A stretch of 64,000 nucleotides of DNA, from the UHGV virus genome UHGV-1430915. One strand, given 5' to 3'. A model generated the notes under the pieces. It searched no databases, was not told the origin of the DNA, and saw nothing but the letters and a program-made list of their open reading frames with translations. The position numbers and the translations under genes were made by a program. This stretch comes from a virus. This document shows positions 33,996-37,567 of this stretch, piece by piece; the stretch's first letter is position 1; each line of letters begins with the position of its first letter.

Positions 33996-34274
33996 ATGAG
34001 TTGTGAAAAATCTTTTTTCATTATCATCTACGGTAAGGATAACTGCCCACATTGTGTAAGAGCAAAAGAATTTGCAGTAAGCAAAGGTATACCTTTCGTA
34101 TACAAGACGCTCGGTGAAGGATACACAAAAGAAGAGCTTATTGAGAAGTGTAGTCCATTTGTTCCCAGAACGTTGCCTCAGATCTTCTTGGAAAGCAACC
34201 TTGATAGTGTCCACATAGGTGGTGCTGACGATTTCATCTCTTTTGTTAAGAATGGTCTTGGAGAGAAAAAGTGA
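33996..34274 (+). CDS. glutaredoxin-like redoxin (NrdC/NrdH-like)
   Basis: 92 aa with CPHC active site near N-terminus; between nrdB and nrdD. Confidence 0.65.
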   Translation: MSCEKSFFIIIYGKDNCPHCVRAKEFAVSKGIPFVYKTLGEGYTKEELIEKCSPFVPRTLPQIFLESNLDSVHIGGADDFISFVKNGLGEKK

Positions 34275-36394
34275 AAGTTGTAAAACGGGACGGCAGAGAA
34301 GAGGTCTATAACGGAGTTAAGGTAATCAAGGCGGCAGAGTCCGCCTTACTTGAGTCTGGGCATACTGAAGAAGAAGCTTACCGGATCGCTTGTGCGGTTA
34401 ATGAAGTTGTTGCCAACAATCTACCAACCGACCAGTGCACGATCTCTGTAAAAAATATCCATATCCTTGTTGAAGATGCTCTTATGGATATGGGTTTAAA
34501 ATGTGCAGCCAGAGAATATATCCAGTATAGACAGACAAGAGATAATAACAGAGAGGCAGGTGGAAAACTGCTTGCAGATATTAGTGGCTTCTTGGATCGA
34601 ACTTGTGATGAATTTACAAAAGAAAACGCAAATAAGCCCACTAATCATGTACATACTCATCGTGACCTGCTTGCAGGTATCCTTAGCAAACACCTTGCAT
34701 CAACACAGATACTGCCAGATCGTGTCTCCGAAGAGCACAACAAGGGATTCATCCATGTGCATGATCTTGACTATCTGATCAGTCCGTTAACAAACTGCTG
34801 TTTGGTGAATTATCCGGATATGCTGGAAAACGGATTCAACATTGGCAACGCCCATGTCAGTAAGCCGAAGTCAATAGGGGTTGCAACAACAATCCTCAGC
34901 CAAATCTCTAGTGCAGTAGCTAGTGCTCAATATGGTGGTCAGACCATGAGCCATATTGATCATTATCTGGCGCAGTATGCTGAAGCAACCTATGAGAAGA
35001 ATCTTAAATTTTGTCAGGAACATTGGTTGCCGGATGCTGAGACTGTTGCAATGCAAATGACGGATAAAGACGTGTTTGATAGTATGCAAACTTTGCTATA
35101 CCAAATCAATACGTTAACTTCTGTCAACGGGCAAACTCCATTCATCACATTAAGTTTAGGACTGGATACCTCAATCTTTGGTAGAATGATTACCAAAAAC
35201 TACCTGAAAGTCCACAAAATGGGTCTTGGTGAAGAACGTATCACACCTGTGTTCCCTAAGGTGTTGTTCTTCCTGGAGGAGGGTATCAACATGAACCCCG
35301 AGGATCCTAACTATGATTTGAAACGATTAGCTCTGGAATGCTCTGCAGAGCGGATTTATCCTGACTTCGTATCTGTACCACTAAATAGAAAAGTGACAGG
35401 TTCAACAGAAGGTAATGTCACAAGCATGGGTTGCCGGAGTTTTCTTAGCAAATACAATGACTTGGAAACAGGAGAGGAGAAATACCTTGGCAGATTTAAC
35501 TTAGGTGTTGTTAGCCTTAACCTACCAATGATTGCAGCCAAAGCTAAAACGGAAGGTGTTGATTTCTTTGCAGTTCTTGACGAGTACTTGGATCTGGCCT
35601 ACGAGGCTCACCTTGTAAGGGTTAACCGTCTAAAAGGAACAAAGGCAGGGCAGAACCCCATCATGTGGTGTGAAGGAGCCCTTGCTCGCCTGGATCCTGA
35701 AGAGAGTATTGATAAACTCTTCTATGACGGGTATGCTTCCATAAGTATTGGATATATTGGTGTGTATGAAACCTGCCAGATTTTAGGCAGAGAGGGAGAC
35801 AAGTCCTTAGCTCTTGGGATCCTTCAGCACATGAAAGACGCTTGTGATCGGTACAAAAAAGAAAGTGGTCTGGCATTCAGCTTGTACGGCACTCCTTCAG
35901 AGAGCTTGTGCTATAAGGCTGCAACATGTCTAGATCGTGAATATCCTGAAGTGTTGAAGCACGAGCACGAATACCTTACCAACAGTTTCCACCAGCCCGT
36001 GTGGATCAATAGTTCACCTTTTGACAAGTGGAAGTATGAGGAAGGTTTTGCTATGATCTCTTCTGGCGGCAACATTGGATACATAGAAACACCTAACCTG
36101 AAAAACAACCTGGATGCTTTGGAAGCCCTTGTCGATTTCGGGTATAAACACATTATGTATTTTGGTATTAACCAACCTGTGGATAAATGCCTTAAGTGTG
36201 GATTCTCTGGTGAGTTCAGTGCAACAGCTAAAGGCTTTGTATGCCCAGAGTGTGGAAACCATGAAGAAGGAACGATCAGCGTGATTAGACGTGTATCTGG
36301 GTATTTGTCTAGTCCAAACTCCCGTCCTTACAACAAAGGTAAGCAAGCGGAAGTTATAGAACGGGTTAAGCACTACGGAAGTTGTGGTTGCTGA
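34271..36394 (+). CDS. nrdD: anaerobic ribonucleoside-triphosphate reductase
   Basis: 707 aa; C-terminal glycyl-radical motif RVSGY and zinc ribbon CLKCG...CPECG. Confidence 0.9.
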   Translation: MKVVKRDGREEVYNGVKVIKAAESALLESGHTEEEAYRIACAVNEVVANNLPTDQCTISVKNIHILVEDALMDMGLKCAAREYIQYRQTRDNNREAGGKLLADISGFLDRTCDEFTKENANKPTNHVHTHRDLLAGILSKHLASTQILPDRVSEEHNKGFIHVHDLDYLISPLTNCCLVNYPDMLENGFNIGNAHVSKPKSIGVATTILSQISSAVASAQYGGQTMSHIDHYLAQYAEATYEKNLKFCQEHWLPDAETVAMQMTDKDVFDSMQTLLYQINTLTSVNGQTPFITLSLGLDTSIFGRMITKNYLKVHKMGLGEERITPVFPKVLFFLEEGINMNPEDPNYDLKRLALECSAERIYPDFVSVPLNRKVTGSTEGNVTSMGCRSFLSKYNDLETGEEKYLGRFNLGVVSLNLPMIAAKAKTEGVDFFAVLDEYLDLAYEAHLVRVNRLKGTKAGQNPIMWCEGALARLDPEESIDKLFYDGYASISIGYIGVYETCQILGREGDKSLALGILQHMKDACDRYKKESGLAFSLYGTPSESLCYKAATCLDREYPEVLKHEHEYLTNSFHQPVWINSSPFDKWKYEEGFAMISSGGNIGYIETPNLKNNLDALEALVDFGYKHIMYFGINQPVDKCLKCGFSGEFSATAKGFVCPECGNHEEGTISVIRRVSGYLSSPNSRPYNKGKQAEVIERVKHYGSCGC

Positions 36395-36457
36395 TACTTG
36401 ACAAAAGCCACAAGGATGTGGCATATTGTTATCACACAGTAAACTAGGAGGTGCAGT

Positions 36458-36574
36458 ATGTCTACAGGTATTTATAAAATTTGCAAGTGCGGTTGTCATT
36501 GCAATCTTCGTTGGTGTAAGGCACTGGACGATTTTATTTGGCATTGTCCTAAATGCGATGCGGAGTACTTATGA
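36458..36574 (+). CDS. small Cys-rich protein (38 aa), translationally coupled to nrdG
   Basis: not in ORF track; ATG after AGGAGG; CKCGCHC...CPKC; stop overlaps nrdG ATG as ATGA. Confidence 0.45.
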   Translation: MSTGIYKICKCGCHCNLRWCKALDDFIWHCPKCDAEYL

Positions 36575-37044
36575 ATATTGTCGGATACACAGAAATATCC
36601 TACACCGAAGGGCCGGGTCTCAGGACGGCCTTGTGGGTATCTGGGTGCCCACACGCTTGTCCTGGTTGCTTTAATCAAGCATTTTGGTCAAAAGATAAGG
36701 GAAGAGAATTCACCGAAGAAGATTTGCAGAGAATTTTGTCAGATTTAGACAATGAATCTATATGCGGTATTTCTTTGCTTGGTGGAGAACCTTTGGCTAC
36801 GTATAATGAGCCCGGTATTATTAAACTTATGAGGAGAATTAAGGAAAAGTTTGGTGACAAGAAAACTATTCTTGTGTATACTGGGTTCACATTTGAGCAT
36901 ATCTCTAGTGATGTTCTTGAGCTGGCTGATATCATCATTGATGGCAAGTATGTAAAAGATTTACCAACAAAGAAACCATTCCGAGGCAGCGATAACCAAA
37001 GAATGTTTAAAAAGGTAGCAGGCGGTTGGGTTCAGGTTGACTAG
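36571..37044 (+). CDS. nrdG: anaerobic RNR activating protein (radical SAM)
   Basis: CPHACPGC (Cx3Cx2C) radical-SAM cluster motif; start set at ATG 36571. Confidence 0.85.
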   Translation: MNIVGYTEISYTEGPGLRTALWVSGCPHACPGCFNQAFWSKDKGREFTEEDLQRILSDLDNESICGISLLGGEPLATYNEPGIIKLMRRIKEKFGDKKTILVYTGFTFEHISSDVLELADIIIDGKYVKDLPTKKPFRGSDNQRMFKKVAGGWVQVD

Positions 37045-37047
37045 TCG

Positions 37048-37077
37048 TTGACAAAGCTTTGGTAAGTTGGTTATAAT
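37048..37077 (+). promoter_or_regulatory. sigma70-like promoter
   Basis: TTGACA-18 nt-TATAAT. Confidence 0.65.
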
Positions 37078-37106
37078 TATCGTAATGAAAGCAGAGGAGG
37101 TGCCAA

Positions 37107-37220
37107 ATGGCTAAAAAAGCCTTGAAGAAGGCGTACAAGAAAGAGATTGCGCTTGAGCTTAAGAAAAAACACAAGCGTGAAAAGAAATGTCATGAAGATG
37201 AAGAGGGGGTGCAACAGTGA
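37107..37220 (+). CDS. small Lys-rich basic protein (37 aa)
   Basis: not in ORF track; ATG after GGAGG, downstream of promoter. Confidence 0.4.
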   Translation: MAKKALKKAYKKEIALELKKKHKREKKCHEDEEGVQQ

Positions 37221-37567
37221 CACAAGAGCGTATTGATTTAGCCAGTAAGTTTGTAGATCTCATTTTGCCACGGTTGGTTACTCAACATGCAGACGCTATT
37301 TCTACCAATCTTGATGGCTTACGCCTAATGCTGAACCGAACAGATGATCCACGTATTCGGGCCGATTTAGAGGCCTCTGCCAACAAACTGGAAAAGTTCT
37401 TGCAAGTAGATACGCAAGAAGCCTTGCACAAGATTATGGTGGAAGGTTTCTCTAAAGAATTCACCGTTAAAGAGCTTAAGGAGCTGATCCGCCAAGAAGA
37501 GATGAATATCCGAGTTCAGGCTGTTGCAAGCAGCATGGAAGCGGCTATTGAAAAACTGTTGCAGTAG
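37217..37567 (+). CDS. hypothetical protein
   Basis: 116-aa ORF, GTG start overlapping preceding stop. Confidence 0.5.
   Translation: MTQERIDLASKFVDLILPRLVTQHADAISTNLDGLRLMLNRTDDPRIRADLEASANKLEKFLQVDTQEALHKIMVEGFSKEFTVKELKELIRQEEMNIRVQAVASSMEAAIEKLLQ

Follow-up and report, generated by a model that had tools for sequence, protein, structure and literature searches.

The window, a 64,000-nucleotide stretch of a viral genome (UHGV virus genome UHGV-1430915), carries between nrdD and nrdG a 38-codon mini-gene that is a genuine protein-coding gene under frame-specific purifying selection. We favor, with moderate confidence, the reading that it encodes a trans-acting accessory metal-binding mini-protein, inserted in the ancestral nrdD/nrdG junction, portable, and with a function independent of NrdG. 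The region contains:

34271..36394, + strand: nrdD, catalytic subunit of the class III ribonucleotide reductase (Pfam NRDD, E = 2.5e-161)
36398..36427, + strand: sigma-70-like promoter, TTGACA, 18-nt spacer, and CATATT with a TG extended -10 (promoter scan, 10/12 matches; putatively active)
36407..36422, no strand assigned: perfect 6-bp inverted repeat GCCACA-AGGA-TGTGGC, from a scan for terminator-like structures, lying in the promoter spacer and conserved with the promoter
36446..36451, + strand: Shine-Dalgarno (SD) sequence AGGAGG of the mini-gene, read directly
36458..36574, + strand: mini-gene, 38 aa, MSTGIYKICKCGCHCNLRWCKALDDFIWHCPKCDAEYL, a member of PHROG 20137 (ORF, purifying selection, PHROG match, homologues, and structure models)
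36562..36565, + strand: SD sequence GGAG of nrdG, within mini-gene codons Ala35-Glu36 (GCG GAG), 5 nt before the nrdG ATG
36571..36574, + strand: ATGA overlap of the nrdG start (ATG) and the mini-gene stop (TGA), read directly; putative termination-reinitiation coupling site
36571..37044, + strand: nrdG, activase of the class III ribonucleotide reductase, a 157-aa radical SAM protein with a CxxxCxxC cluster motif (Pfam and NCBIfam)

A sequence-only reading of this region had claimed a 38-aa Cys-rich ORF behind an AGGAGG ribosome-binding site, with its stop overlapping the start of nrdG as ATGA, and these features were all recovered: the ORF at 36458-36574 (+) begins with ATG, its 38-codon translation equals the quoted peptide exactly, AGGAGG ends 6 nt upstream of the ATG, and the mini-gene TGA (36572-36574) overlaps the nrdG ATG (36571-36573). 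The downstream gene is indeed nrdG (Pfam Fer4_12, E = 4.5e-43; NCBIfam TIGR02491, 149.8 bits against a cutoff of 126.1). The reported eight Cys and one His are in fact seven Cys (residues 9, 11, 13, 15, 20, 30, and 33) and two His (residues 14 and 29), in a protein of 4.5 kDa with a near-neutral pI of 7.6. We dropped Cys-richness as a statistical argument because random frames in the window reach 7-8 Cys (4 of the 658 mechanical ORFs of 25-80 aa have at least seven).

The mini-gene is real beyond chance because it combines a consensus SD sequence, an intergenic position, and frame-specific purifying selection. In 55 pairwise comparisons among 11 loci, pN/pS was mostly 0.04-0.15 (maximum 0.32, in close pairs with few differences), with pS reaching 0.87, and variable sites in the aligned core of 28 codons plus the stop were distributed as 9/3/19 over first, second, and third codon positions (third positions: 19/29). 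The frame is open in all loci, with stops interrupting an alternative frame in L005 and L009, and AGGAGG, AGGAG, or GAGGA is found at an unchanged distance from the ATG in 11/11 loci. All seven Cys are invariant across loci, His14 varies (H/R/S/K/E) as does His29 (H/Y), the non-Cys residues NLRW, LDDFIW, and AEYL are conserved as well as the Cys, and the N-terminus is variable. That the ORF is spurious, or a decaying remnant with no function of its own, we regard as extremely improbable: the mini-gene is very short, Cys-rich random ORFs do occur in the window, and the rV5 reference annotation leaves it out, but purifying selection confined to one frame at near-saturated synonymous divergence, a conserved SD sequence, presence in all ~122 Vequintavirus records, and the movement of an intact copy to an unrelated phage all speak against it.

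The mini-gene had been called unannotated, which proved incorrect, since many public Vequintavirus genomes already list it as a hypothetical protein, and it belongs to PHROG 20137, a family catalogued from Vequintavirus genomes (E = 2.5e-30, 105 bits; the match spans all 38 residues and all 38 profile positions). Other records, and the PHROG itself, label it 'ribonucleotide reductase', whereas the mini-protein has 38 aa and no ribonucleotide reductase domain (NRDD, Gly_radical, or Radical_SAM/Fer4_12; no Pfam match at E ≤ 1 and no NCBIfam match); the label appears to have been copied from the neighboring nrdD/nrdG annotations. The rV5 reference record omits the gene and annotates a different, wrong frame in its place. 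Two annotation errors are thus corrected here, the wrong frame in the rV5 reference and the 'ribonucleotide reductase' label in PHROG/RefSeq. No rubredoxin or ferredoxin family in Pfam or NCBIfam matched at E ≤ 1, and a PDB sequence search with the peptide and the family profile returned nothing below E = 0.43. A profile search of 1.84 billion representatives gave two clusters and no distant relatives, and a homologue search with the peptide plus a 2-residue GS pad gave nine close clusters only. A host or prophage origin is unsupported: none of 5,426 complete E. coli genomes contains a copy, and the sole 'plasmid' match is a 137.5-kb Vequintavirus-sized record. Duplication of the C-terminal zinc ribbon of NrdD (CxxC...CPxC) was also rejected (BLASTP E = 0.14-0.20 with the long variant; the window peptide did not align). 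In the literature on rV5 and nrdG, Vequintavirus transcriptomics, ACG-C91, and small zinc-ribbon phage proteins, we found no study of the mini-gene and no experimental evidence of its translation or of metal binding.

NrdG was found in 2151 phage records and the mini-gene in ~122, among them every Vequintavirus record matched. In LTH01, Seunavirus KE22, TH18, and the phi92-like muut, the mini-gene is absent and the nrdD stop overlaps the nrdG start; NrdD of other genera ends in ...KH[V/T/F], and their nrdD stop likewise overlaps the start of nrdG. A C-terminal NrdD tail, YGSCGC, is peculiar to Vequintavirus and lies at the left boundary of the mini-gene-bearing insertion. The mini-gene always lies inside nucleotide-metabolism gene clusters (nrdB, grx, nrdD, nrdG, and phoH around the window copy) and directly 5' of nrdG in about three-quarters of its occurrences, and ~33 of the ~122 Vequintavirus records have a 78-aa gene, gp111, between mini-gene and nrdG, the mini-gene then ending in TAA. 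The context is mosaic in its alleles as well: three NrdG classes with 48-57% mutual identity stand downstream of mini-protein cores that are at least 90% identical, and in other lineages nrdG is overlapped by 4 nt by nrdD, gp111, or an unrelated 175-aa gene; in each lineage examined, nrdG overlaps the gene that precedes it. Conservation of the reading frame upstream of nrdG, proposed as a check on the mini-gene, is thus borne out as far as the frame is concerned, which is under selection in 11 loci, but the mini-gene need not adjoin nrdG. Some functional connection with dNTP supply or radical-SAM chemistry may nevertheless exist, because the mini-gene is nrdG-adjacent in about three-quarters of cases and NrdDG and PflA are present in the host as well.

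The portability of the mini-gene is most visible in the K1E-like podovirus ACG-C91 (a single phage, represented by two database records of one genome), where a homologue 82% identical to the window ORF is found upstream of DNA ligase. The ACG-C91 ORF replaces a 38-aa CPxC...CxxC mini-gene of K1E exactly, from the start codon to ATGA, within flanks 92-98% identical to K1E. Among the matches listed in our nrdG and nrdD searches there was no K1E-like (Vectrevirus) record. The displaced K1E/Vectrevirus mini-protein (MTCPNCGS...CHSCD...) resembles the one in the window in size and in having two Cys knuckles ~18-20 residues apart, and its gene shows the same genomic design, its stop overlapping the ATG of the next gene in TATGAATAT. 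The two peptides differ in Cys content (4 in K1E vs 7) and in pI (an acidic 4.1 vs 7.6) and have no detectable similarity (BLASTP E = 0.45).

In the window, the mini-gene would be expressed from its own sigma-70-type promoter and consensus SD sequence as the first cistron of a bicistronic unit with nrdG. The promoter is nearly invariant in the window, L001, L002, L003, and L008, none of which has a homing endonuclease gene there, and is absent from L004-L007 and L010. The inverted repeat in its spacer may serve as an operator or as a weak terminator-like hairpin downstream of nrdD. The neighboring unit at 37048-37220 has a like layout of promoter, mini-ORF, and overlap. At the distal end of the mini-gene, ribosomes terminating at its TGA would be positioned on the nrdG ATG, with the nrdG SD sequence inside the last mini-gene codons. 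The TATGAATAT junction is identical in L001, L006, L008, L010, and ACG-C91 (where it joins the mini-gene to ligase); L002 and L005 keep ATGA with one or two junction substitutions, L007 has GTGA, and the mini-gene of rV5-type phages stops with TAA. GGAG is invariant in 11/11 loci and GCG GAG is unchanged in 10/11, the exception being ACG-C91, which has ACG GAG and so keeps GGAG; because GGAG is invariant while 19/29 third codon positions vary, the alignment suggests that GCG GAG is under a dual constraint from coding and ribosome binding. The RNA fold predicted at the mini-gene/nrdG junction was no better than that of shuffled sequences (MFE z = -1.25 for 211 nt and -1.5 for 81 nt), and a weak local hairpin is able to pair part of the nrdG GGAG. 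With the ATGA overlap and the nrdG SD sequence in its last codons, the mini-ORF would thus assume the coupling role that nrdD has in related genera, and coupling would reflect the way nrdG is generally packed against its neighbor rather than a dedicated means of control.

The mini-protein very probably binds metal and probably adopts a zinc-ribbon-type fold, as judged from its Cys pattern and from structure models. Longer variants (41 and 53-54 aa) have the pattern CK[D/H]C...CP[K/E]C, that is, a CxxC knuckle followed by a CPxC knuckle; the window variant has CxC and not the canonical CxxC as its first knuckle, and the C-terminal CPxC is invariant. Two AF2 models of low confidence (mean pLDDT 63.7 and 65.0; ~70-79 in the core) place beta-hairpin strands between the knuckles. 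The best PDB matches in Foldseek were all zinc ribbons (the N-terminal ribbon of the NUDIX hydrolase 3cng, Rpb9, and ZifS), superposed with an rmsd of ~1.0-1.3 Å over 32-34 residues at a best, nonsignificant E of 0.18. Generic zinc ribbons (Rpb9/TFIIS type, the 3cng N-terminal ribbon, Thermus ZifS, and the small CPxCG zinc-finger proteins of Haloferax) share with the mini-protein a predicted beta-hairpin flanked by Cys knuckles, but the matches are nonsignificant, the first knuckle in the window is CxC, and three extra invariant Cys have no counterpart in them. A small CPxCG protein, 8q5b, gave a weak profile match (E = 0.43). In the arrangement we envisage, one Zn would be held between the N-terminal Cys cluster (CxC, or CxxC where the protein is longer) and the C-terminal CPxC knuckle, leaving the three further invariant Cys (13, 15, and 20) free for a second, shared, or bridged metal site. 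An Fe-S or binuclear site may take the place of a simple C4 ribbon, because the first knuckle is CxC and seven Cys exceed what such a ribbon needs. Of the proposal that the peptide is a zinc or iron-sulfur mini-protein acting with the activase, the first part gains from selection, from the seven invariant Cys, and from the predicted zinc ribbon (with its nonsignificant Foldseek E-values), and the tie to the NrdG activase is not supported.

That tie would make the mini-protein an accessory dedicated to NrdG/NrdD, whose Zn, Fe, or Fe-S centre aids the anaerobic reductase by donating electrons, rubredoxin-like, to the [4Fe-4S] cluster of the activase, by chaperoning clusters or metal, or by modulating glycyl-radical activation, possibly on the host NrdG or PflA. 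The mini-gene does lie directly upstream of nrdG and overlap it in the window, L001, L002, L005-L008, and L010, its nucleotide-metabolism neighbors and surplus of invariant Cys fit such a role, and a host-directed version is compatible with the location in ACG-C91. We nevertheless consider this reading unlikely: the sister-genus junctions and ~2000 other nrdG-bearing phage records do without the mini-gene while their NrdD and NrdG are ordinary; the mini-protein core stays at least 90% identical and does not covary with the three NrdG alleles, which differ strongly from one another; gp111 intervenes in roughly one in four Vequintavirus records; the ACG-C91 copy precedes DNA ligase, with no Vectrevirus nrdG or nrdD among the matches listed; and rubredoxin or ferredoxin matches are absent from Pfam and NCBIfam. 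The same displacement of the ORF from nrdG (in rV5-type phages and ACG-C91), which shows that the linkage is not obligatory, makes a cis-acting leader peptide very unlikely. Translation of its many Cys codons (7/38) would on that account sense Cys-tRNA or sulfur, or stall the ribosome, and so gate nrdG, and the ATGA overlap, the nrdG SD sequence within the last codons, the hairpin that can pair part of it, and the similarly arranged adjoining unit at 37048-37220 are what one would expect; but NLRW, LDDFIW, and AEYL are as conserved as the Cys, the RNA structure does not exceed that of shuffles, and unrelated upstream genes overlap nrdG equally elsewhere. Ordinary translational coupling is what survives of the suggestion that a leader peptide controls nrdG, the amino acid sequence itself being under selection. 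In phage Mu, com encodes a small Cys4 zinc-finger protein and overlaps the start of mom; Com activates mom translation and acts on a specific mRNA hairpin. It sets a precedent for coupling between a zinc mini-protein and a downstream gene; it differs in that the mini-gene has no significant predicted RNA structure and in that the gene downstream of the latter varies (nrdG, gp111, or ligase).

A Cys-rich peptide of ~40 aa directly upstream of a radical SAM gene also recalls the SCIFF/ranthipeptide precursors, Cys-rich peptides of ~40-45 aa encoded beside radical SAM maturases, and the mini-gene could in principle encode such a RiPP-type precursor, modified by the adjacent enzyme. We give this almost no credence, because the neighbor is a canonical 157-aa, equivalog-level NrdG without a SPASM/twitch domain (SPASM maturase models fall well short of their cutoffs) and is paired with a complete NrdD, the linkage is not conserved and the peptide is also found without an adjacent radical SAM gene, and there is no leader/core architecture, the N-terminus being variable and the whole core structured in the models. 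Anti-defense or host takeover, in which the zinc ribbon would neutralize a host factor (restriction or another defense), is a specific version of the explanation we favor, and we consider it unlikely. On this view the mini-gene could be exchanged for other mini zinc ribbons of phage early regions. It draws on the ORF-for-ORF swap with the 38-aa zinc ribbon of K1E, on a sigma-70 promoter typical of early genes, and on the sharing of the mini-gene, like accessory genes, by unrelated coliphages. Lar of the Rac prophage is a small zinc-ribbon protein that alleviates EcoKI restriction; as a small stand-alone phage-encoded zinc ribbon acting on a host system, it resembles the mini-protein by analogy only, and the K1E peptide is weakly, sub-threshold Lar-like (TIGR03655, E = 3.7e-4, 20.7 bits against a cutoff of 39.6). 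The mini-protein itself shows no similarity to the K1E peptide or to Lar (no TIGR03655 match in NCBIfam for the 38-aa or the 53-aa form), and whereas anti-defense genes tend to evolve quickly and to have a patchy distribution, the mini-gene is present in every matched Vequintavirus record and is under strong purifying selection.

A portable accessory mini-protein acting in trans accords with a history in which, in the genus Vequintavirus, a moron-like cassette entered the ancestral nrdD/nrdG junction; insertion is the proposed direction because nrdD and nrdG overlap directly in sister genera. The mini-protein would most likely bind a conserved protein or nucleic acid of the E. coli host in early or middle infection, a role proposed for other stand-alone zinc-ribbon mini-proteins of phages. 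A quite unlikely further reading makes the Cys7 mini-protein a portable cofactor protein, carrying metal or Fe-S, that acts on NrdG/NrdD/PflA-type machinery of the host as well as of the phage and so tunes the activation of glycyl-radical enzymes or dNTP supply. It would explain the preference for nrdG-adjacent positions, the extreme conservation, and the ability to work in a podovirus for which our searches detected no anaerobic reductase and, if true, would define a new class of small viral regulators of radical-SAM activases.

As things stand, the mini-gene encodes an uncharacterized accessory protein and brings no new mechanism. It is a well-supported 38-aa addition, under strong selection, to the small proteins recorded for the therapeutically used genus Vequintavirus, whose rV5-like phages are common in coliphage collections. 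The exchange in ACG-C91 clearly illustrates how small zinc-ribbon genes can behave as interchangeable cassettes where genes of unrelated phages are translationally coupled, and the target of the mini-protein, if found, could reveal a new control point in host takeover or nucleotide metabolism.

DNA identity between the region and the rV5-like E. coli myoviruses (genus Vequintavirus) was 88-98%, with phage S127 BCL3 as the best match (97.9% over 801 nt), and the local gene order is nrdB, glutaredoxin, nrdD, mini-ORF, nrdG, a 37-aa Lys-rich ORF, a 116-aa ORF, and phoH. The mini-ORF encodes exactly the peptide quoted in the sequence-only reading, and the AGGAGG ribosome-binding site and the stop/start overlap with nrdG were both found as described. 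The count of eight Cys and one His was wrong: there are seven Cys (residues 9, 11, 13, 15, 20, 30, and 33) and two His (14 and 29).

Features of the window around the mini-ORF
34271-36394: nrdD
36398-36427: predicted sigma-70-like promoter before the mini-gene (TTGACA, 18-nt spacer, CATATT, TG extension)
36407-36422: inverted repeat GCCACA-AGGA-TGTGGC, perfect 6-bp, within the promoter spacer
36446-36451: Shine-Dalgarno sequence (SD) AGGAGG of the mini-ORF, 6 nt 5′ of its ATG
36458-36574, plus strand: mini-ORF, seven Cys, two His
36571-37044: nrdG, its ATG overlapped by the mini-ORF TGA as ATGA
37048-37077: consensus sigma-70 promoter of the next unit (TTGACA, 18-nt spacer, TATAAT; 12/12)
37107-37220: 37-aa Lys-rich ORF (PHROG 7670)
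37217-37567: 116-aa ORF, GTG start (PHROG 7650)

The next unit (37048-37567) repeats the mini-gene/nrdG layout of promoter, small ORF, and overlapped larger ORF, the TGA of the Lys-rich ORF overlapping the GTG of its neighbor; this Lys-rich ORF also lies just 3′ of nrdG in Seunavirus KE22 and phage TH18.

We compared the mini-ORF with 10 further loci (four GenBank Vequintaviruses, three IMG/VR contigs, two Logan contigs, and O157 typing phage 14), and these data are decisive for its status as a gene. In the 28-codon core, pairwise pN/pS lay mostly between 0.04 and 0.15, with a maximum of 0.32 in close pairs that differ at few sites, and pS reached 0.6-0.87; variable sites at codon positions 1/2/3 of the mini-ORF numbered 9/3/19. 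An SD (AGGAGG, AGGAG, or GAGGA) stands at constant spacing in every locus, and the frame, whose conservation in relatives was one of the tests named in the sequence-only reading, is open in all loci compared. The mini-ORF is therefore translated, with its amino-acid sequence under strong purifying selection. These sequence comparisons make it a well-supported gene, and that it is spurious is barely conceivable. Cys-richness was dropped as proof: among 658 ORFs of 25-80 aa called mechanically across the window, 4 carry seven or more Cys.

None of the seven Cys varies, whereas His14 (H/R/S/K/E) and His29 (H/Y) do and are therefore not ligands. The first knuckle is CKC in the window and the canonical CK[D/H]C in 41- and 53-54-aa variants, the latter with an additional Lys/Glu-rich N-terminal extension. 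The sequence had no match in Pfam, NCBIfam, or PDB; a profile run against 1.84 billion representative proteins returned two clusters only, both of its own family, and a word-indexed search through 5.8 billion returned nine close clusters. No copy was present in 5,426 complete E. coli genomes, and a literature search found no paper on the mini-gene. In both of two AlphaFold2 models (mean pLDDT 63.7 and 65.0; core ~70-79), the stretch from the N-terminal Cys cluster to the CPxC knuckle folds as a beta-hairpin, and every one of the best PDB structure matches is a zinc ribbon (that at the N-terminus of NUDIX hydrolase 3cng, Rpb9, and ZifS; rmsd ~1.0-1.3 Å over 32-34 residues, E-values 0.18 or higher). 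The models point to a likely zinc-ribbon-like metal-binding fold, with three invariant Cys beyond the ribbon's need.

In other Vequintavirinae (LTH01, Seunavirus KE22, and TH18) and in the phi92-like phage muut, NrdD ends in ...KH[V/T/F], its stop directly overlaps the nrdG start, and the junction holds no mini-gene. The peptide occurs in only ~122 phage records vs. 2151 with NrdG; thus the mini-gene was inserted into an ancestral junction at which nrdD and nrdG were already coupled. The Vequintavirus NrdD ends in ...KHYGSCGC (window 36377-36394), whereas the sister genera (loci L015-L018) have ...KH[V/T/F]; the genus-specific tail YGSCGC, an extra stretch with Cys in it, borders the mini-gene on the left and apparently arose when the mini-gene was inserted. 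Yet another tail, ...KHTNNGDCCSIY, ends NrdD in comparison locus L010.

The mini-ORF is conserved upstream of nrdG in relatives, a check that the sequence-only reading had proposed, but in ~33 Vequintavirus records, rV5 and naam among them, the 78-aa rv5_gp111 intervenes. This gene is shared with Rtp-like siphoviruses (PHROG 3249; annotated "putative minor capsid protein"); in these Vequintavirus records the mini-gene stops with TAA, and the ATGA overlap belongs to gp111. Three NrdG allele classes, 48-57% identical to each other, stand behind mini-protein cores at least 90% identical, and the core showed no covariation with them. Judged by eye, NrdD is much less divergent, so most of the NrdG contrast comes from exchange of nrdG alleles. 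In rV5-type phages, the final 26 residues of NrdG do not differ from the window's, which puts a recombination breakpoint within the gene.

A 36-aa homologue (MSVFKICKCGCRCNLRWCKALDDVIWYCPKCNTEYL) lies directly 5′ of the DNA ligase gene in the K1E-like podovirus vB_EcoP_ACG-C91 and overlaps the ligase start as TATGAATAT, like the mini-gene and nrdG. K1E and UTI89UKE2 carry an unrelated 38-aa CPxC...CxxC zinc-ribbon ORF at the same slot. The ACG-C91 flanks match K1E at 92% and 98% identity, and its ORF matches that of the window at 82%; the exchange was therefore ORF-precise. No K1E-like records were among the matches listed for the nrdG and nrdD searches.

Every lineage examined has nrdG overlapping its upstream gene, be it nrdD, gp111, a 175-aa gene (Slopekvirus), or the mini-ORF. 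The nrdG SD, GGAG, lies inside mini-ORF codons Ala35-Glu36 and is invariant in 11/11 loci; the GCG GAG pair is unchanged in 10 of them, and synonymous change is frequent elsewhere. The RNA fold at the mini-ORF/nrdG junction was no more stable than those of shuffled sequences (z = -1.25 and -1.5). Translational coupling is therefore plausible but generic, a role taken over from nrdD of related genera.

The predicted promoter is conserved in relatives without a homing endonuclease gene there, and is replaced by other sequence where HNH genes sit between nrdD and the mini-gene (naam, L007, and L010) and likewise in typing phage 14. The inverted repeat, conserved with the promoter in five relatives, may serve as an operator or form a weak terminator-like hairpin for nrdD. 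Both nrdD and the nrdD/mini-gene interval are hot spots for different inserted genes; nrdD is also split in several GenBank phages, by an annotated HNH homing endonuclease in 241Ecol014PP.

Additional genes in comparison loci (coordinates of each locus)
L010 2399-2908: HNH-type homing endonuclease gene, 169 aa (PHROG match)
naam (L004) 33-965: HNH-type homing endonuclease gene, 310 aa (PHROG match)
L007 45-1259: HNH-type homing endonuclease gene, 404 aa (PHROG match)
typing phage 14 (L005) 1-939: unclassified 386-aa gene in the nrdD/mini-gene interval
L006 4467-5261: unclassified 264-aa gene splitting nrdD
rV5 (L003) 1417-2123 and naam 1286-1992: gp111 and divergent nrdG 5′ part (55% aa identity)

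The mini-gene had been called unannotated, but many relatives' records list it as a hypothetical protein, some GenBank entries and RefSeq name it "ribonucleotide reductase", and its entire length aligns with PHROG 20137 (E = 2.5e-30). The rV5 reference record departs from this (L003 1084-1385; NC_011041 rv5_gp109, gp110): the conserved mini-ORF is missing, and ORF114 (75 aa) is annotated in an overlapping frame, directly followed by ORF115 (34 aa). ORF114 is probably spurious because its frame is interrupted in relatives (typing phage 14 and L009). PHROG 20137 and PHROG 13972, two small zinc-ribbon ORF families, are labeled "ribonucleotide reductase" and "DNA ligase"; the labels look copied from the larger neighboring gene and are now spreading into RefSeq annotations. 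About 18 "Campylobacter phage" records (GenBank MG065647-MG065690, host C. jejuni) carry the mini-gene and are ~90% identical to rV5-like coliphages across the locus; they are probably mislabeled, or coliphage contaminants of Campylobacter phage preparations. PLSDB CP057073.1, a 137.5-kb "non-mobilizable E. coli plasmid" with the mini-gene adjoining nrdG, is, judged on size and content, most likely a Vequintavirus genome assembled together with its host.

The sequence-only reading had offered a metal-binding partner of the NrdG activase or a leader peptide. Metal binding is reasonable, but a functional tie to nrdG is not supported: four lines of evidence (the junctions, gp111, the NrdG alleles, and ACG-C91) speak against it, and an NrdG/NrdD-specific cofactor is rather unlikely. 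The leader-peptide idea keeps plausible coupling in its favor; with that coupling generic and the fold unremarkable, a Cys-sensing leader is highly improbable, and a RiPP precursor is scarcely credible. The most economical reading is that the mini-ORF encodes a trans-acting, probably Zn-binding mini-protein, whose accessory cassette would have entered the nrdD/nrdG junction in the Vequintavirus ancestor and been exchanged with one or more unrelated coliphages. The protein would function independently of NrdG, its target most likely being a conserved E. coli or nucleic-acid one; a Lar-like anti-defense role, a specific version of this reading, is possible though unlikely. The mini-protein would be a new, uncharacterized member of a familiar class of small phage zinc-ribbon proteins, from a family already catalogued, though under the wrong label.
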